Part shown: positions 5,536 to 15,533 of the stretch, piece after piece | How the letters are laid out: each line of letters starts with the position of its first letter | Position numbering within the stretch: the stretch's first letter is position 1 | IMG/VR virus record: IMGVR_UViG_2923618136_000001 | DNA length: 18,768 nt | Strand: one strand, 5' to 3' | DNA from: a virus | Lineage: Duplodnaviria; Heunggongvirae; Uroviricota; Caudoviricetes | Program-made: the position numbers and the translations under genes | The notes under the pieces: generated by a model | The model's input: the letters and a program-made list of their open reading frames with translations, nothing else | Told to the model about the DNA's origin: nothing | Database searches by the model: none

Positions 5536-6014
5536 TCCCTGTTGCTGAGCCTGAATCGGTCGATCTCCATACGGATCGCCGCCGTCTTGATCGGGTCGAT
5601 CCGCGTCTGATCCCGGATGACCTGCAGCGGATCAGCCGCCTTGGCCGCGCGGGCGGCCCCCGCCGCCGCGGCGGTGATGGTTCCGTAACGCTCCTTGCAG
5701 ATGGCGAGCTGCTCAGTCACCTGCGCGCGAGCGGCCTCGACGTCGAGCAGGCCGGGCGCCGGCATGTCCAGCTCCCCGGCCGCGTGAGCGGGCGCGAGCA
5801 ACGCCGCATGCAGGATCACGTCCAGGGCTTCATCGACGGTGGCCAGGCCGTACTCCGCTGCCCGAACCTCGATCGCTTCCTTCGGCACGTAGGAAGCGAA
5901 CCCCGAGCTCGGGTCGCCGTCGACCGGCTCGTAGGTGATCAGCCACGCGTCCTCGCCGGGACTGCTCACCTCGCGGACCTGAGTGATACGCCACTGCTGG
6001 ACCGGCATCGTCAC
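5532..6014 (-). CDS. Hub/fibre-1 partner protein (paralog of 1879-2547), about 160 aa
   Basis: EVRAAEY...LDVILH and DPLQVIRDQTRIDP motifs. GTGA overlap with the 122-aa gene; start could be 6017, 6014 or 6008. Confidence 0.75.
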   Translation of the reverse strand: MTMPVQQWRITQVREVSSPGEDAWLITYEPVDGDPSSGFASYVPKEAIEVRAAEYGLATVDEALDVILHAALLAPAHAAGELDMPAPGLLDVEAARAQVTEQLAICKERYGTITAAAAGAARAAKAADPLQVIRDQTRIDPIKTAAIRMEIDRFRLSNRE

Positions 6015-6379
6015 CACTCGGCCGACGGGATCGCCACGCCGCTGAAAGTGAACGTGACCGTCTCCTCGTAGTCCCTGTAGCGCCGGACCACGACCGTGTT
6101 GCTACCGTCAGCCAACGCCTGCGCGGCGTCCTGCGCGGCAGTGGAAGGGTCGATGAAACCCTCGGGCGGATGCTCGAAGTGCTCCACCGCCCACCGGTAT
6201 GTCGTCGGGGAGACCGGGACACGGAACGCGACGTACCACTGCTCACCGGGGCGGTACACGGTGGATCCGTCAGGCAGGAAGATTCCCCACATCATTCCTG
6301 GGCTCTTGAGCACCTCTACGGCCGCCTCATCGAGCGCGGCAACATCAGGGGTAACGGAATCCCCGTTGATCCAAAACAT
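6011..6379 (-). CDS. Hypothetical protein downstream of hub/fibre 1, 122 aa
   Basis: Strong RBS GAAGGAGG before ATG 6379; fills the gap in a tightly packed operon. Confidence 0.75.
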   Translation of the reverse strand: MFWINGDSVTPDVAALDEAAVEVLKSPGMMWGIFLPDGSTVYRPGEQWYVAFRVPVSPTTYRWAVEHFEHPPEGFIDPSTAAQDAAQALADGSNTVVVRRYRDYEETVTFTFSGVAIPSAEW

Positions 6380-9141: not shown

Positions 9142-9199
9142 TGTATACCGGTAGACAGATGGGGTGCCGCACTCTAATGTGTCTACCAGTAGACACATT
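9142..9199 (+). promoter_or_regulatory. Sigma70/HrdB-type promoter overlapped by two palindromic operators
   Basis: -35 TAGACA 9152-9157, 17-bp spacer, -10 TAATGT 9175-9180. Operators TGTaTAC-CG-GTAGACA (9142-9157) and perfect AATGTGTCTAC-CA-GTAGACACATT (9176-9199). RBS GGAGG 9201-9205. Confidence 0.8.
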
Positions 9200-9209
9200 G
9201 GGAGGCGTA

Positions 9210-9527
9210 ATGGACATGGAACTCGTCACGATCCACGACGTGGACGGCCTGTTCGACAACCAGATCGATGGCGCGCTGCCCTGGAACATCGACCCGGTCT
9301 TCGCTTTCGAGACCGAGGTCGACGCCCTGCAGGTCCTCCAGCATCTCGCCGAGCAACTCGACACGACCCGCCAGCAGCTCCACCACGTGATGCGCTACAT
9401 GGAAGCCGCCGTGAAGGCCGCAGGCGCAACCGTCGAGGACGGGTCACCGATCAAGCCTCAGGCGATCATCAACCACACGGGCCTCTCGCGCCGTACCGTC
9501 TACAAGTTCCTCGGCACGCGCCAGTAG
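9210..9527 (+). CDS. Accessory HTH protein (helical N-part, C-terminal resolvase-type HTH), 105 aa
   Basis: PQAIINHTGLSRRTVYKFL HTH; RBS GGAGG; it is the 3' end of the 7974-9527 ORF-track frame. Confidence 0.8.
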   Translation: MDMELVTIHDVDGLFDNQIDGALPWNIDPVFAFETEVDALQVLQHLAEQLDTTRQQLHHVMRYMEAAVKAAGATVEDGSPIKPQAIINHTGLSRRTVYKFLGTRQ

Positions 9528-9536
9528 TCTGCGGCC

Positions 9537-9845
9537 ATGAACCCTCAAATCGAGGCAATGCACGCTGCCAACGTCGCCCAGGTCAACGCCCAGATGCGCG
9601 CGGAAGGCGTATGCAAGATGCACCTGAGTAAGCCGCGGCCTGCGGCGACAAGGGTGTGGCACTACACGAACGGCAACGAGGTCCCGATGTGCCAGGAGTG
9701 CGTCGACGCCTTCGCCCAGGGCGTCACAGACGGTTGGGCTCAGCCACCTGTGAAGATCGAGTCGCTTGGGTCACAGGTAGGAGCGACGGCCCCGAATCTT
9801 CAGAGCCGACGCGCCAGACGTGCTCGACGCCGTCGCGCTGACTAA
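9537..9845 (+). CDS. Accessory small protein with possible Zn-binding CxxH...CxxC motif, 102 aa
   Basis: Starts 9 nt after the HTH stop with gene-like codons (CKMH...CQEC). No clear RBS; the last 75 nt overlap the Dit 3' end antisense. Confidence 0.55.
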   Translation: MNPQIEAMHAANVAQVNAQMRAEGVCKMHLSKPRPAATRVWHYTNGNEVPMCQECVDAFAQGVTDGWAQPPVKIESLGSQVGATAPNLQSRRARRARRRRAD

Positions 9846-10640
9846 GACGGCCCGCGAGTGCGGGTCGCCCAACGCCATCGCGGGGGTCAGGTGTAGCCAC
9901 CGGAACGCCGACCCCGGGCCGGTGGCGTTGATGTCGCCGGTCACGTCCGTCCCTTCGTCGAGGTCCCACGTGTCGGTCGTGACGATCGCGGCCCTGAGCT
10001 GCCCGCAGTCGATCAGCAGGTGCTGCCCGGCGAGCACAGTCTCCGCGTAGGACACCGTGCCCCCGGTGGCCACGTCGACGACCGAGGGATGCACGGCCGG
10101 GCCGGTCACCCGCACCAGCGCATCCGTGACCGGCCCCGTGGACCCGGCAAGCGGGGTCACGATCTGCGCGGCCCCCGGCAGGGTGCCGGTCCACGTCGAA
10201 TCGACCTCGTCCCGCCAGTACACGCCCGGGACCTTCACCACGGCGGTCAACCTGGCCAGCGCCGCCCCGACATTGACCTCCGGCTCCGACACGGCCTCGA
10301 CGGTCACGCCCGCGACGCGGATGATCGACCCGGCCACCCACTTGCAGGTGATCAGCCGGTGCCGCACGCCGAGCAGCGCGCCCAGCGCTTCGAGGTTGGC
10401 CTCCATCTGCTCGACCCCGCCGTCCGCCCCGGACGGGGTCCGCGAGTAGACGGTGAGCGCGAGCCCGAACGACGTCGCCTCATGGTCGAGGCTCATGATC
10501 GGCAGTTCACCGGCCCGGCCCGCCACGGCCACGTTCGCCGCCCGCACCCCCGGCAACGGCCGGCGCTTGGTGCCCTTCTTCAACTTCCAGCACCCGCTCG
10601 GATGATCCAGCGGGACACCGTCGAGGACGTACGTCGCCAC
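9771..10640 (-). CDS. Distal tail protein (Dit-like), 289 aa
   Basis: Directly after the tape measure; size and beta-rich pattern fit Dit; typical C-terminus KIRGRRSYL. Confidence 0.75.
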   Translation of the reverse strand: MATYVLDGVPLDHPSGCWKLKKGTKRRPLPGVRAANVAVAGRAGELPIMSLDHEATSFGLALTVYSRTPSGADGGVEQMEANLEALGALLGVRHRLITCKWVAGSIIRVAGVTVEAVSEPEVNVGAALARLTAVVKVPGVYWRDEVDSTWTGTLPGAAQIVTPLAGSTGPVTDALVRVTGPAVHPSVVDVATGGTVSYAETVLAGQHLLIDCGQLRAAIVTTDTWDLDEGTDVTGDINATGPGSAFRWLHLTPAMALGDPHSRAVLVSATASSTSGASALKIRGRRSYL

Positions 10641-12857
10641 TCACACCACCCCCAGTGCACCGGCCATTTGCAGGCCACGATTGATCGTCTGCGATGACGG
10701 TTCGGCCTGCGGGTTGATCGTGGTCAAGTTGAACACCACGCCCCCGCCTCTCCCCGGCCCGGCGCCGCCGGCCACTCCCCCGCCCGGCCCGACCGGCACG
10801 GCCAGCTCCGGGGAGAACGCTGTGCTTAGCTGCCCAGCGATGTTCCGGGCCGTGCGCAGCACCTGCCCGGCCGACCCTTGCATGCCCTGCGCCATGCCGA
10901 GCATCGTGAACTGGCCGATCTGAGCGAACACCCGGCTGGGCGAGGAGATACCGAGGGCCTGGCGCACCCAGTCCGGCATGATCTGCGAGAAGAACCCGAG
11001 GATGGAGTTCCGGAACCAGTCCCACATGGACACGATGCCGTTCCACAGGCCGCTGATCACGGCCACGCCGATGTTGCCCATCACCGAGGCGATGTCACCG
11101 ACTGCGGACACGATCTGTCCCGGCAGGTTCATGAAGAAGCCGACCAGCGTCCCGCCGATCCACTGGCCGATCCCTCGCACCAGGTCAGGGATGATGCTGT
11201 GACCGATCAGCACGTCATACAGCCACCCGAACGCGGCGGCGACCGTCTGCACCATCGCGTTCACGACCAAGACGATCATCTGCACTGACGGGCCCAGAAC
11301 GTACGACAGGCCCTGCGCGAGCAGCGTCACCAGGGTGATGACCTGCGGCAGCACTGTGACCGCGAGCTGCACCAGCGGCGGCAGCAGCGGCATGACCGCA
11401 TAGAGGATCTGCGTGAACCCTGATGCGAGCTGGACCAGCATCGGAGCGAGCGAGAGAACAAGCTGCACAGTCGGAGGCAGAAGCGACACCGCGAGCTGCA
11501 GCAGCATCGGCAGGATCGGCGTCACGGCGGGCAACAGCGACGTGAACGCCTGAGCCACCTGAACCAGCGCGGGCGTAAGCATGATCACCGCACGCATGAC
11601 CTCCGTGCCGACCAGGACCGCGGCCTGCGTCAGCAACGGCAGAATCGGCGCGATGGCCTGCACGAGCACACCGAGGACCTGAACCAGCGCCCCGCCCACG
11701 ACGGCCGCAAGCTGCCCGACGAGCGGCAACAGCGGCGACAGGGCAGGTAGCAGCGCCGTGGCGATCTGCGCAACCAGATTCGCCAGCGGGCCAAGCAGCG
11801 GGATCACGGCCAAGAGGAACTGCCCGAACGCGGTCGTGAGCTGCCAGACGACCGGCTGGAGCTGCACCAGCACCGGCACCAGAGCGGCGGTGATCGCTGA
11901 GACGACCTGCACCAGTACCGGCATCAACGCTGTCGCGAAAATCGCGACGAGCTGCACCAGCGGCGGCAGCAGCGGGGCCATGGCCGCGACGAGCTGGCCG
12001 AGGCTCACGACGAGCACGGCGACGTGCGGCGCGACCTGCGTAAGCGCTTGGATGAGCGCACCACCGAGGGCCTGCACGATCATCGCCAGGGCACCCATGA
12101 CCGGCCCCATGAGCTGCGCGCCCACCTGGACGAGCGTGGCGATCAGCGGGGCGAGGGCCTGGAGGATCGAGCCCACGCCGACGATGAACTGAGCGACCGC
12201 ACCCGAGTTCGCCGCGACCGCCTGCGCGATCACGCCGAAGAACCCGGCGAGCTGCGCACCGAAGATGCCCATCACGCCGGCGAGCTGAGACAGGACCGGC
12301 ACGGCAGCGGCAACGATGTGCTGCAGCGCGGGCAGCGCCGACTGGAGGAACTGCACCAGGCCCGTCGTGAGTTGTCCCAGCAGCGGCGCGATCTGGCCGA
12401 ACATCTGAGTCAGCGCGGGGGCGATCATCTGCGCGAAGATCGAATGCAGGTTCGCGGCGACCTGCACCAGCGGGGCCTCGAACACACTGGCCGCTCGCTT
12501 CAGCTCCATCGTGACGCTGTCGGCCATCGCGGAAAACGCCAGCTTGACGCCTTCCGCTTGCGCGGCCGCGGCGATACCGATCCCGCCGAGCACGCCGACG
12601 ACCCCGAGGAAGCTGGCTCCGACGATGACAGCGGAACTGCTTGCGGCTACGCCGAGCGCGCCGAGCGCTGTGGCCGCCGACGCCGCGGCGATCCCGACTC
12701 CTGCGCTCATCGAGGCGGCTTGGACACCGATCGACCCGAAGATGCCGCCGAACTGGCCCGCGAACCGCTGCAGGTCGTTCAGGGCCCGGCGGAGCCCGGG
12801 GGTGAGGTAGTCCCGCAGGCTGATCGTGGCGACCAGGTCGCCGACGTTGAGCGCCAC
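10641..12857 (-). CDS. Tape measure protein 2, 738 aa
   Basis: N-terminus MALNVGDLVATISLRD; long amphipathic LLPPLVQL repeats; LGISSPSRVF...G motif; RBS AGGAGGTGA. Confidence 0.85.
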   Translation of the reverse strand: MALNVGDLVATISLRDYLTPGLRRALNDLQRFAGQFGGIFGSIGVQAASMSAGVGIAAASAATALGALGVAASSSAVIVGASFLGVVGVLGGIGIAAAAQAEGVKLAFSAMADSVTMELKRAASVFEAPLVQVAANLHSIFAQMIAPALTQMFGQIAPLLGQLTTGLVQFLQSALPALQHIVAAAVPVLSQLAGVMGIFGAQLAGFFGVIAQAVAANSGAVAQFIVGVGSILQALAPLIATLVQVGAQLMGPVMGALAMIVQALGGALIQALTQVAPHVAVLVVSLGQLVAAMAPLLPPLVQLVAIFATALMPVLVQVVSAITAALVPVLVQLQPVVWQLTTAFGQFLLAVIPLLGPLANLVAQIATALLPALSPLLPLVGQLAAVVGGALVQVLGVLVQAIAPILPLLTQAAVLVGTEVMRAVIMLTPALVQVAQAFTSLLPAVTPILPMLLQLAVSLLPPTVQLVLSLAPMLVQLASGFTQILYAVMPLLPPLVQLAVTVLPQVITLVTLLAQGLSYVLGPSVQMIVLVVNAMVQTVAAAFGWLYDVLIGHSIIPDLVRGIGQWIGGTLVGFFMNLPGQIVSAVGDIASVMGNIGVAVISGLWNGIVSMWDWFRNSILGFFSQIMPDWVRQALGISSPSRVFAQIGQFTMLGMAQGMQGSAGQVLRTARNIAGQLSTAFSPELAVPVGPGGGVAGGAGPGRGGGVVFNLTTINPQAEPSSQTINRGLQMAGALGVV

Positions 12858-12859
12858 GT

Positions 12860-12905
12860 CTCACCTCCTGAAAGGTCCGCATGGGCTGGGATTTCAGGAG
12901 GTGAG
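12860..12905 (-). promoter_or_regulatory. Hairpin sequestering the TMP2 ribosome-binding site
   Basis: Perfect 14-bp inverted repeat CTCACCTCCTGAAA (12860-12873) / TTTCAGGAGGTGAG (12892-12905). On the mRNA the 3' arm is the TMP2 SD. Confidence 0.8.
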
Positions 12906-12919
12906 GCGCGAGCCGGGTG

Positions 12920-14836
12920 TCAGGAGACGAGGCCGGCCGCCGCGGCGTACTGCAAGCCCCTATTCACGGTCTTGGAGGTGGGCTCGGCCTGCGGGTAGTT
13001 GTTCGTGACGTGCACCGTCACCTGGGATGCTCGGGCTGCGGCGTTCTGCCCGCTGAACCCTCCGCCGCCCTCGATGGCCACCACGGACCCGCCGTTGCCC
13101 GTGCTGCCCTCGATGGTGTTCTTCGGCTTCGGCAGCGGAACATCGAACTTGGTCGCGGTCCCCACGATGCGGCCCAGCCCGTCGCGGGCCACCGACTGCA
13201 CCTTGTCGACCATGATCTTGGCGGCGCTCATCGCGATTTTCTCGTTGTCCTTGATGCCCTTGGCCAGGCCGAGCACGGAGAACATGCCGAACTCAGCGAA
13301 GACCGTGGACGGCGAATTGATGCCGAGCAGGCCCTTGATCCAGCCGAGGAACCCGTTGATCAGGTTGCCGACCGAGGAGGTGAATTTGTTCCAGGTGTTC
13401 TGGAATCCCTGGATGATGCCGTTGACCATGTCCGAGCCCAGGGTCTGCAGCTTCTTGAACGCCTCGGTGACGGTCTTGCCGAAGACGCCGACCGCGTTCT
13501 TGATCAAGTCGAAAGCGCCTCGGAAGTCCCCTTGGAAAAGCTTGATGACCGCCTGCACGGCGCTCAGGACCAGGGGAATCACGGCGGTCGCGAGCTGCAT
13601 CAGGGGTGGCAGGAACGGCGTGACGGCAGCGACCAGCTTCACGAAGACCCCAGCGAGCAACGTCAGAACCGGGGTCAGCGCCTTGATGATCGTCACGATC
13701 GGCGGTAGAAGCCCGACCAGGAGCTGCGACAGCGGCGGCAAGATCGGCAGCAAAGCCGTGATGACCTGCCCGAACGCGGACGCGACCTGAGCCAGCACCG
13801 GCTGCAGCGCCACCAGAACGGGCTGCAGCGCCGCCGTCAAGGACTGCGCGATCTGGACCAGCACCGGCATGAGCGACGTCGCCAGGGTGGCCGCGAGCTG
13901 CAGGAACGGCGGCAGGAGCGGGATCACGGCGGTGAGGATCGCCCCGAAAGCCGTCACGATCTGAGCGATGACCGGCCCGAGCTGGATCAGAACTGGCGCA
14001 AGCGATGTTGATAGCGCGTTACCAACCCCGGCCAGCGCAGCGAAAAGCGGCCCGGCGACCTGCCCGGCCACCTGGACCAGGGCGGCGAGCACCGGACCTA
14101 TCGACTGCAGAACCCCGCCGATCCCGGTTACCAGGGTCGCCAGAAGACCGCTGTTCTGGCTCAACGCCTGCGTGATCGGCTCCATGAACCCAGCGATTTG
14201 CCCACCGAAGGTACCGAGGCTCCCGGCGAGCTGGCTGAGCATCGGAGCGACCGCCGCCACGAGTCCGGAGACTGCCGGCAGCATCGGCTGCAGGAAGTCG
14301 CCCAGCCCGGAGGTGAAGTCACCGATCAGCGGAGCCAGATCGGTGAACATGCCCTGCAAGGCAGGCGCGATCTCGCTGGAGAACATCGTCTTCAGCGACC
14401 CGGCCGCCTGGATCAGCGGCGCCTGGAACACCGTCGCGGCGTCCGCCATGTCCGCCTGAACCGAGGTCTTGAGATCACCGAAAGCGGCCTTCACCGCTGG
14501 TGCGGCCATCGCCGCGTTGATGCCGAGCTTCGCGATCCCGAGCGCGGCGCCAGCAAAAGCGAAAGCGACAGCGCCGCCGACCGCGACTCCGGCCGCTCCC
14601 ACCCCGGCCAGCAGCGCGCCGCTCTTGGCCCCGGCCGAGGCGATGGCCTTGCCCGTTGACGCCGCCCCCGACACGACGGCCGACGACATGCGTCCGGCCG
14701 CCATCCCGGCGGCGATCAGGGCGGCGTGGATCCCCGTCGCGTTGACCTTGATTCCAGCGGTGGCCCTGCTGAACGGCCCTGTCATCTGGTCTCGGAATGA
14801 CAAGGTGGCGTACAGGTCACCAATGTTGATCGCCAT
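12920..14836 (-). CDS. Tape measure protein 1, 638 aa
   Basis: N-terminus MAINIGDLYATLSFRD; amphipathic repeats; LGINSPSTVF...G motif; RBS AGGAGG; follows the tail assembly chaperone. Confidence 0.85.
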   Translation of the reverse strand: MAINIGDLYATLSFRDQMTGPFSRATAGIKVNATGIHAALIAAGMAAGRMSSAVVSGAASTGKAIASAGAKSGALLAGVGAAGVAVGGAVAFAFAGAALGIAKLGINAAMAAPAVKAAFGDLKTSVQADMADAATVFQAPLIQAAGSLKTMFSSEIAPALQGMFTDLAPLIGDFTSGLGDFLQPMLPAVSGLVAAVAPMLSQLAGSLGTFGGQIAGFMEPITQALSQNSGLLATLVTGIGGVLQSIGPVLAALVQVAGQVAGPLFAALAGVGNALSTSLAPVLIQLGPVIAQIVTAFGAILTAVIPLLPPFLQLAATLATSLMPVLVQIAQSLTAALQPVLVALQPVLAQVASAFGQVITALLPILPPLSQLLVGLLPPIVTIIKALTPVLTLLAGVFVKLVAAVTPFLPPLMQLATAVIPLVLSAVQAVIKLFQGDFRGAFDLIKNAVGVFGKTVTEAFKKLQTLGSDMVNGIIQGFQNTWNKFTSSVGNLINGFLGWIKGLLGINSPSTVFAEFGMFSVLGLAKGIKDNEKIAMSAAKIMVDKVQSVARDGLGRIVGTATKFDVPLPKPKNTIEGSTGNGGSVVAIEGGGGFSGQNAAARASQVTVHVTNNYPQAEPTSKTVNRGLQYAAAAGLVS

Positions 14837-14862: not shown

Positions 14863-15189
14863 TCAGTCGGAGGAGGGGATGCCGCGTCTGCGGCTGGTTG
14901 CCTTACTGGGAGGCGGGGCGAGCTGACGAGACAGCCGGGTGTCTTCCGCCAGCAGCCCGAGGATCCGAACCCGTAGCCACCGCCAGGACCGACCCGTCAG
15001 CACGCCGGGCGCGTCGAGGTCGATCCCGTAGTGGCTGTGCAGGTCCGCCTCGATCAGGTCCCAGTGGGTCAGGACGCCTTCCCACGTGAGGCCTTTTGGC
15101 GCGGGTTCGTACCACTCGTAGAGCCCCGTGACTTCGTCGTACTCGCCGCCGCCGATGAGGTCGCCGGGTCCGGGGCCTGTGCTTCCGGG
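14863..15189 (-). CDS. Tail assembly chaperone T-segment, probably expressed by -1 frameshift from the upstream ORF
   Basis: The -1 frame encodes HWDLIEADLH..YGID...RSWRWLRVRILGLL, typical of actinophage chaperone T segments. It has no RBS-supported start of its own. Candidate slip site CCCGGAA at 15189-15183. Confidence 0.65.
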   Translation of the reverse strand, partial: PGSTGPGPGDLIGGGEYDEVTGLYEWYEPAPKGLTWEGVLTHWDLIEADLHSHYGIDLDAPGVLTGRSWRWLRVRILGLLAEDTRLSRQLAPPPSKATSRRRGIPSSD

Positions 15190-15533
15190 CTGCCACCGGA
15201 CTCCCAATACCGCGTCGCGGTGTCGAGGTCGGCAGCGATCCACAGAAACGCCGTCACACCGGCGAGCTTGATCACCGGCCAGGAGACCTTGTCTGCGAGC
15301 AGCTCCCCATGGACGGGGCCGAGGCACCGCTGGTAGAGGTCGAGCTCCTCGCCGTCGTCCAGGTCGGCGAGGTCAGCCTGCTTGCCGTTCGCGGCGGCGA
15401 CACCGGCCTGCATGAGCCTCTGGCAGAGCAGGCCGGTCTCCGCGGACGGCGCCGGGATGGTGTACTCCTTGCCGCCGATCGGCAGGGTGAGCGTGGTGTC
15501 GAGAAACGCGTCGAGGGCCTTGAGCTTCGCCAT
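15069..15533 (-). CDS. Tail assembly chaperone (G-like), 154 aa
   Basis: Lies between tail tube and TMP; LDAFLD..LTLPIGGKEYTIPAP motif; low-complexity S/T/R tail overlapping the T segment. Confidence 0.8.
   Translation of the reverse strand: MAKLKALDAFLDTTLTLPIGGKEYTIPAPSAETGLLCQRLMQAGVAAANGKQADLADLDDGEELDLYQRCLGPVHGELLADKVSWPVIKLAGVTAFLWIAADLDTATRYWESGGSPEAQAPDPATSSAAASTTKSRGSTSGTNPRQKASRGKAS

Follow-up and report, generated by a model that had tools for sequence, protein, structure and literature searches.

A tailed phage normally needs one tape-measure gene only. The rule according to which each residue of its product accounts for 0.15 nm of tail comes from phage lambda, where a single ruler gene is present and where the paradigm of the gpH ruler and the gpG/gpGT chaperone reportedly goes back to Katsura and Hendrix 1984 and to Xu et al. 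2004. Staphylococcus phage 80alpha has one tape-measure gene, too, whose product, gp57 (1154 amino acids, aa), is present with three chains in each solved entry (PDB 6V8I / 9MU2). The nearest parallel which we found in the literature is provided by the Microbacterium phages of cluster EB, among which two alternative types of tape-measure gene occur whose lengths match the tail lengths of the virions (PMC7302621). While each genome of this cluster harbours one type, the prophage analysed here carries two tape-measure genes, TMP1 and TMP2, in one genome and in tandem. It was studied in the 18,768-nucleotide (nt) stretch IMGVR_UViG_2923618136_000001, in the following referred to as the window, which corresponds to C1:2747352-2766119 of a 10.6-Mb actinobacterial genome and belongs to a prophage of a Streptosporangium-type host. 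The window comprises the tail module of a siphophage, the relevant genes of which are all located on the minus strand. The pair and the gene following it are arranged as given below.

12920..14836, minus strand: TMP1 (copy 1, c1), 638 aa, ATG start, with tape-measure PHROG and PDB matches
12858..12919, minus strand: intergenic spacer between TMP1 and TMP2, 62 nt, containing the TMP2 Shine-Dalgarno sequence GGAGGTGAG
10641..12857, minus strand: TMP2 (copy 2, c2), 738 aa, GTG start, with tape-measure PHROG and PDB matches
9771..10640, minus strand: single gene at the position of the distal tail protein (Dit), assigned by this position, with 61-88% identity over 58 related loci

Judged from their sequences, both TMP1 and TMP2 appear to be genuine and complete tape-measure proteins. 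The pairwise alignment proposed in a preliminary description of the window yields 33% identity over both full lengths (BLASTP, E 4e-87) and, along with the PHROG and PDB matches, bears out the claim made there that both are full-length paralogs, neither of them being a split fragment. The tape-measure PHROGs matched include phrog_58 (E 7e-29) for TMP1 and phrog_305 (E 2.9e-37) for TMP2. Within the PDB, TMP1 matches FtbJ (9J1K, E 1.5e-9), whose entry likewise contains three tape-measure chains, and gp57 of 80alpha (6V8I, E 2e-8); TMP2 matches 80alpha gp57 (E 1e-5) as well as FtbJ. Compared to the single protein of 80alpha, the two proteins of the prophage are far more hydrophobic, their grand averages of hydropathicity amounting to 0.76 (TMP1) and 1.11 (TMP2). 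AlphaFold2 monomers of the two are about 80% helical according to DSSP, at a mean predicted local distance difference test score of only 36 and 46, which is too low for the models to be used in fold searches. Matches obtained by tblastn in isolated phages land on annotated tape-measure genes. No curated tape-measure model of Pfam scored above threshold, the only match being Baculo_PEP_C at or below its cut-off of 38 bits (38.1 bits for TMP1, 15.1 bits for TMP2), and NCBIfam gave no match for TMP1 or TMP2; homology of the lambda ruler to the pair is undetected by Pfam or NCBIfam. Actinophage tape measures often lack a match to any model of these two collections, and the missing match weakens the label of a curated family, not the homology seen with PHROG and PDB.

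Both start codons are supported since Shine-Dalgarno sequences (AGGAGG / GGAGGTG), which are conserved for both genes, are present 5-6 nt upstream and since the N-terminal motif, MAINIGDLYATLSFRD in TMP1 and (V)ALNVGDLVATISLRD in TMP2, is located at residue 1 in the window and in all orthologs. This motif had been quoted in the preliminary description together with an SPSxVF motif and a C-terminal one, all of which we recover in both proteins: SPSxVF is realised as SPSTVF at aa 508 of TMP1 and as SPSRVF at aa 639 of TMP2, and the motifs near the ends read PQAEPTSKTVNRGLQ and PQAEPSSQTINRGLQ, respectively.

To place the pair among its relatives, loci were collected by a Dit-alignment search with one genome per species, and the open reading frames of the resulting 58 related loci were tabulated. 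Both tape measures are intact in 14 loci and in the window which, together with four extra pairs from IMG/VR, makes at least 19 prophages, carried by Streptosporangium, Nonomuraea and Spongiactinospora. In the nearest relative, Streptosporangium sp. CA-135522, the pair measures 638/734 aa and is 77% and 74% identical to that of the window; the host genome of the window belongs to the same GTDB genus as this strain and S. saharense. In one degraded prophage (L046) both copies are broken and two more loci are truncated remnants, while a locus with exactly one broken copy was not found among those tabulated. A single tape measure of 685-972 aa is encoded in about 25 Streptosporangiaceae loci and in all loci of the Pseudonocardiaceae outgroup. 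These single-gene prophages possess the same N-terminal motif, SPSRVF domain, end peptide, chaperone, Dit and hubs and differ in having one tape-measure gene instead of two; no remnants of copy 1 were found in them between chaperone and tape measure. Among isolated phages, the 4.2-kb pair region has no megablast match. A tblastn search with TMP1 leads to distant (<30%) single tape measures at 454 places in 453 records, and 303 records contain the C-terminal domain of TMP2 (tblastn) at one place each, none of them at two. Full-text literature searches did not return any siphophage described as having two full-length tape-measure genes; their matches for paired tape-measure genes concern the two chaperone products or unrelated uses of the term. 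We consider the conserved pair of complete tape measures to be well supported as a conserved genetic architecture.

The only loss of copy 2 is observed in S. saharense (L025/L051; 6465-9041 in L025), where one copy-1-type tape measure of 858 aa is present. It harbours two SPSRVF domains as well as the ancestral end described below, and its second SPS domain is 37-42% identical to the copy-2 domain. A fusion of copy 1 and copy 2 was considered as the origin of this protein and rejected, its extension being 63-66% identical to long copy-1 proteins. Several relatives (L079, 10870-20867; L033; L038) are remnants of prophages which break off within the tail module or immediately behind it; in L079 both tape-measure genes are intact though the hubs are gone.

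The segments into which the two proteins can be divided are as follows.

13157..13516, minus strand: TMP1 aa 441-560, copy-1-specific C-terminal domain, Lys-rich, with SPSTVF (segment BLAST; composition of 50-aa blocks)
12923..13024, minus strand: TMP1 end peptide, aa 605-638, ancestral type TNNYPQAEPTS..VNRGLQYAA (consensus by class)
11448..12527, minus strand: TMP2 aa 111-470, centre of copy-1 type (segment comparison; collinearity)
11490..11771, minus strand: TMP2 aa 363-456, Pro-kinked LLPP-type repeats, absent from TMP1 (clade-A alignment; motif count)
10644..11147, minus strand: TMP2 aa 571-738, canonical C-terminal domain, W-rich IMPDWVRQALGISSPSRVF, with the derived end peptide TTINPQAEPSS (segment comparison)

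The centre of TMP2 (aa 111-470) is 50-56% identical to copy-1 proteins compared to 30-41% to single tape measures and to copy 2 of clade B, and it shows gap-free collinearity with TMP1 121-372. Its C-terminal part (aa 471-738), in contrast, is 54-59% identical to single tape measures and the other (clade-B) copy 2 and 25% to TMP1; within this part, aa 626-688, SPSRVF included, align to residues 1030-1091 of 80alpha gp57. Conversely, TMP1 aa 441-560 are only 25% identical to their TMP2 counterpart, the C-terminal domain of copy 1 being strongly diverged and fast-evolving. The preliminary description had noted near-identical ends. Related ends are indeed present in both proteins, yet they are not equivalent: an ancestral end peptide, TN(H/Y)YPQAEPTS..VNRGLQYA, is common to outgroup, single and copy-1 proteins (TN(H/N)YPQAEPTS...RGLQYA in copy 1), whereas in every two-gene phage, irrespective of the clade, copy 2 ends in the same derived version, T(T/S)INP.AEP. 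The retention of ancestral features is reciprocal: copy 2 has kept the canonical SPSRVF domain, copy 1 the ancestral end. As the terminal motifs are conserved family-wide, from the Pseudonocardiaceae prophages onward, their earlier interpretation as docking elements is plausible. That the different hydrophobicity of the copies reflects different membrane channels for DNA entry is a hypothesis. No enzymatic domains were detected in either copy, nor in long copy-1 proteins.

In the Dit tree the two-gene state occurs in two clades and three state changes are sufficient to explain it. The tree of full-length tape measures unites all copy-1 proteins, the 858-aa protein of S. saharense included, in one clade (100% support), while copy 2 splits, the type of the window grouping with copy 1 and the other type with single tape measures of Planomonospora. 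This split results from the centre of TMP2 being copy-1-like and its C-terminal part resembling other copy 2 proteins; in the tree of the C-terminal domain the copy 2 proteins are all united in a single clade (95*). Because trees and segment comparison, taken together, point to one origin and a later replacement of the centre, the pair most probably derives from one old duplication in temperate siphophages of Streptosporangiaceae, and the data indicate that in the clade of the window the copy-2 centre was later exchanged for copy-1-type sequence by an old replacement or conversion. Median ratios of non-synonymous to synonymous substitution rates (dN/dS), calculated according to Nei-Gojobori for all pairs within three groups, which are not independent, by a method which is crude at this G+C content (about 68% in the window), amount to 0.25-0.29 for copy 1, 0.27-0.40 for copy 2 and 0.16-0.24 for Dit. 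Relaxed selection on one copy, which the preliminary description had named as an outcome speaking against its interpretation, is not found, as dN/dS of both is well below 1 and near that of neighbouring tail genes. Both copies are kept by purifying selection, neither of them being near neutrality.

In composition the two proteins differ as previously described, TMP2 having very few charged residues and TMP1 a Lys-rich C-terminal part. TMP2 contains 31 charged residues (4.2%), only two of which are lysines, and its residues 128-418 constitute a run of 291 residues devoid of D, E, K and R; TMP1 contains 56 charged residues (8.8%), among them 25 lysines concentrated after aa 440. The number of lysines ranges from 19 to 61 in copy 1 and from 2 to 7 in copy 2 of every lineage. 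In copy 2, arginine is present in place of lysine. Single tape measures contain 12-32 lysines in the Streptosporangiaceae relatives and 1-20 in the Pseudonocardiaceae outgroup. One idea is that, being so poor in lysine, copy 2 might escape lysine-directed modification or degradation once it has been ejected into the actinobacterial host.

The statement that TMP2 exceeds TMP1 mainly by its LLPP repeats turned out to be about two-thirds right. In the multiple alignment of clade A, TMP1 lacks 94 aa corresponding to TMP2 363-456, the main source of the extra length, which are situated in the repeats, and a further 47 aa corresponding to TMP2 548-594, which are not; about 41 aa of TMP1-specific insertions offset these to a net difference of 100. 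While correct for the window, this figure carries no significance: as the difference varies among relatives, from +100 to -388, we regard exactly 100 residues as a coincidence. Copy 2 is longer than copy 1 by 96 residues in the nearest relative and by 66-71, 22 or 34 in others, and the difference becomes negative (-116, -168, -384 to -388) where copy 1 is longer. Copy 1 measures 638-666, 683, 851, 928 or 1147-1148 aa, copy 2 675-767 aa. Between two phages whose copy 1 proteins are 219 aa apart in length, copy 2 has hardly changed (dN 0.04).

The remaining features of the tail module are listed here.

Minus strand: head-tail connector genes, part of the tail module of the window
16106-15537, minus strand: major tail protein
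15069..15533, minus strand: tail assembly chaperone G (phrog_3860, E 4.6e-33), syntenic in all relatives
14863..15327, minus strand: chaperone T frame (G-T extension; phrog_13398, E 9.6e-25 on aa 81-146)
9131-6396, minus strand: hub/fibre paralog 1, 911 aa, large, with small partner genes alongside
5351-2571, minus strand: hub/fibre paralog 2, 926 aa, large, with small partner genes alongside

The gene order of the window is G/GT, TMP1, TMP2, Dit, and the position of the tape measure between G/GT and Dit/hub is the same in all relatives. It resembles that of lambda, where the chaperone G/GT is followed by the tape measure and the tip genes. Only one set of chaperone genes is available for both tape measures. 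The T frame, which is shifted with respect to G, overlaps it and ends 26 nt before the TMP1 start; it is open over 154 codons (overlap with G, 15069-15327). A simple in-frame scan of the G/T overlap did not reveal a canonical X_XXY_YYZ slippery heptamer, so the site of the frameshift may be non-canonical. At the other end of the pair, the stop codon of TMP2 directly abuts the start codon of the Dit-position gene, which weakly matches phrog_5577 (minor tail protein) and which is, as stated earlier, the single Dit common to both tape measures. Between Dit and hub 1 an opposite-strand cassette of two genes is inserted (9164-9845, plus strand) which has no counterpart in the nearest relative, the genes of Dit and hub 1 overlapping there (L024 11545-11548). 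Since in most other relatives this junction is occupied by 0.2-2.8 kb of variable DNA, it looks like a hotspot of accessory genes. A 122-aa gene following hub 1 (6011-6379) has a detectable homolog in one related locus only (L067) and is missing in the nearest relative.

Within the spacer of the window, the Shine-Dalgarno sequence of TMP2 is fully paired in a 14-bp hairpin (minimum free energy -41.3 kcal/mol). A family-wide role of such an anti-Shine-Dalgarno hairpin as a ratio switch was rejected as the pairing clearly exceeds that of shuffled sequences in only four of 15 loci and marginally in two more, chance pairing of the Shine-Dalgarno by C-rich spacers amounting to 0.65-0.86. The hairpin of the window is real but supports a fixed ratio of the copies only weakly, since in most relatives the pairing does not exceed that of shuffled sequences. 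Likewise, a read-through fusion of the two genes was rejected on the basis of spacers of 33-137 nt in mixed frames. The spacer of L040 (7065-7201) contains five tandem copies of a 14-nt unit (GCGCGGAGCCTGAT) repeating the stop-codon context, followed by a long hairpin over the copy-2 ribosome-binding site.

An implied matching of the duplicated tape measures with the duplicated hubs is weakened by about 23 single-tape-measure relatives having a second hub: 12-13 one-tape-measure loci carry both full-length hubs, and in 11 further ones (L049, L050, L052, L053, L055, L058, L060, L061, L064, L065 and L083) hub 1 is cut to its N-terminal domain of 379-391 aa and accompanied by hub 2. Duplicated hubs are not coupled to duplicated tape measures. 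A “two-tail phage” in which each tape measure has its own hub is not supported in this respect, double hubs not being limited to double tape measures. In S. saharense the loss of copy 2 is accompanied by that of hub 1 and the small partner genes of the latter, Dit being situated between both missing parts; this joint loss is a hint, and the only one, pointing to a coupling.

How the two proteins are used can be conceived in several ways, among which we tentatively favour, over two classes of tail length, that both chains are employed jointly in each tail. A common late operon would give rise to both proteins, which would owe their solubility to the one G/GT chaperone and be loaded onto one Dit-hub initiator. 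The copies would by now have become complementary partners, each tail lumen holding both chains either as a mixed trimer or as two co-axial sets, with the length of the tube being set by the longer chain. Once ejected, the two would make up different parts of the conduit crossing the envelope, copy 2 being very hydrophobic and poor in lysine, copy 1 rich in it. Joint use is favoured because the copies are always retained together with the ancestral features divided between them, because in the only case in which copy 2 was lost the remaining copy 1 has both domain types, and because co-expressed duplicates of a homo-oligomer, here a homotrimer, cross-assemble by default. Moreover, given that each copy retains conserved N- and C-terminal ends, the end contacts should be the same for the two. 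Several observations weigh against joint use. The lengths of copy 1 (638-1148 aa) and copy 2 (675-767 aa) vary independently, which excludes whole-length in-register pairing, and, since they do not co-vary, the assumption that the longest chain rules is needed. Three phages whose long copy 1 has both domain types nevertheless retain copy 2, a misfit with strict complementation, and each paralog type is the sole tape measure of some relative, so each may be self-sufficient. All these points would fit the idea of two tail lengths.

According to that idea, which we consider possible but somewhat less probable than joint use, each paralog forms its own homotrimer on the common Dit-hub, giving two classes of tails of nominally about 96 and 111 nm; these values, as the about 95 and 110 nm given earlier, are arithmetic from 0.15 nm per residue and assume each copy to be a separate ruler. 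With the same modest likelihood, two insulated ruler trimers would yield tails of two lengths and, upon ejection, two conduits of unlike chemistry, one nearly devoid of charge and lysine and one Lys-rich; the two classes may cross the host envelope in different ways, and each burst would be hedged. Such alternative rulers agree with both copies being complete and keeping both end motifs, and with the C-terminal domains, being 25% identical, potentially insulating the trimers; in addition, the alternative tape-measure genes of Microbacterium cluster EB match tail lengths (PMC7302621). Yet, if either copy sufficed, repeated single losses would be expected, while one is seen in about 20 loci and there it is accompanied by a compensating domain. 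That the end of copy 2 is derived and that the SPS domain has diverged in copy 1 further suggests that neither fully equals the ancestral protein, and no phage is known to encode two tail lengths genetically. It is unlikely, though worth considering, that copy 2 is the sole ruler and copy 1 an accessory, be it an ejected channel or pilot, an assembly factor or an exclusion protein expressed by the prophage which blocks related phages at the membrane. The C-terminal domain of copy 2 is indeed the canonical one, its gene lies directly next to Dit, and its lengths fall into a narrow range, as do those of single tape measures (675-767 compared to 744-830 aa); copy 1 is far more variable in length with a fast-evolving C-terminal domain. 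Copy 1, however, has retained the ancestral end peptide and the N-terminal motif, S. saharense has no tape measure besides one of the copy-1 type, and the copy-1 gene directly follows G/GT in the late operon with no promoter evidence for separate lysogenic expression. We regard as quite improbable that the trimers are stacked end to end and tail length follows from the sum (1376 aa, nominally about 206 nm). This sum resembles single tape-measure frames of 1290-1509 aa in unrelated prophages of the same genus, and co-variation of lengths would not be required; but the N- and C-terminal motifs are those of single tape measures, no partner-specific ends for head-to-tail docking are present, and the same tube, Dit and hubs serve close relatives whose only tape measure is 744-830 aa long. 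Least credible by far is a redundant duplicate heading for loss or an artefact of annotation or assembly. Although long open frames easily arise in DNA of 68% G+C, an identity of 33% is not that of a collapsed repeat, and this value together with the recurrence of the pair in independent assemblies, complete chromosomes among them, rules out an assembly artefact. Both genes are intact in 19 loci of three genera with dN/dS of 0.25-0.40 and a conserved Shine-Dalgarno sequence at both starts, which rules out a recent duplication and in practice excludes a decaying one.

A single protein ruler is the standard account of how long-tailed phages determine the length of their tails, whereas the lineage described here stably keeps two, along with one chaperone and one Dit. 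The pair raises the questions of how the ruler trimer is composed and of how unequal chains share, or compete for, one initiator, as well as of which parts of a tape measure serve length and which the crossing of the envelope. The low lysine content of copy 2 may have to do with what becomes of the ejected protein inside an actinobacterial host. Should two alternative rulers be produced after all, this would amount to hedging against differences of host envelopes or against exclusion at the membrane level. The family offers a set of natural variants in which these questions are posed: copy 1 varies between 638 and 1148 aa while its partner stays unchanged, copy 2 has been lost once, and in many relatives there is one gene only.

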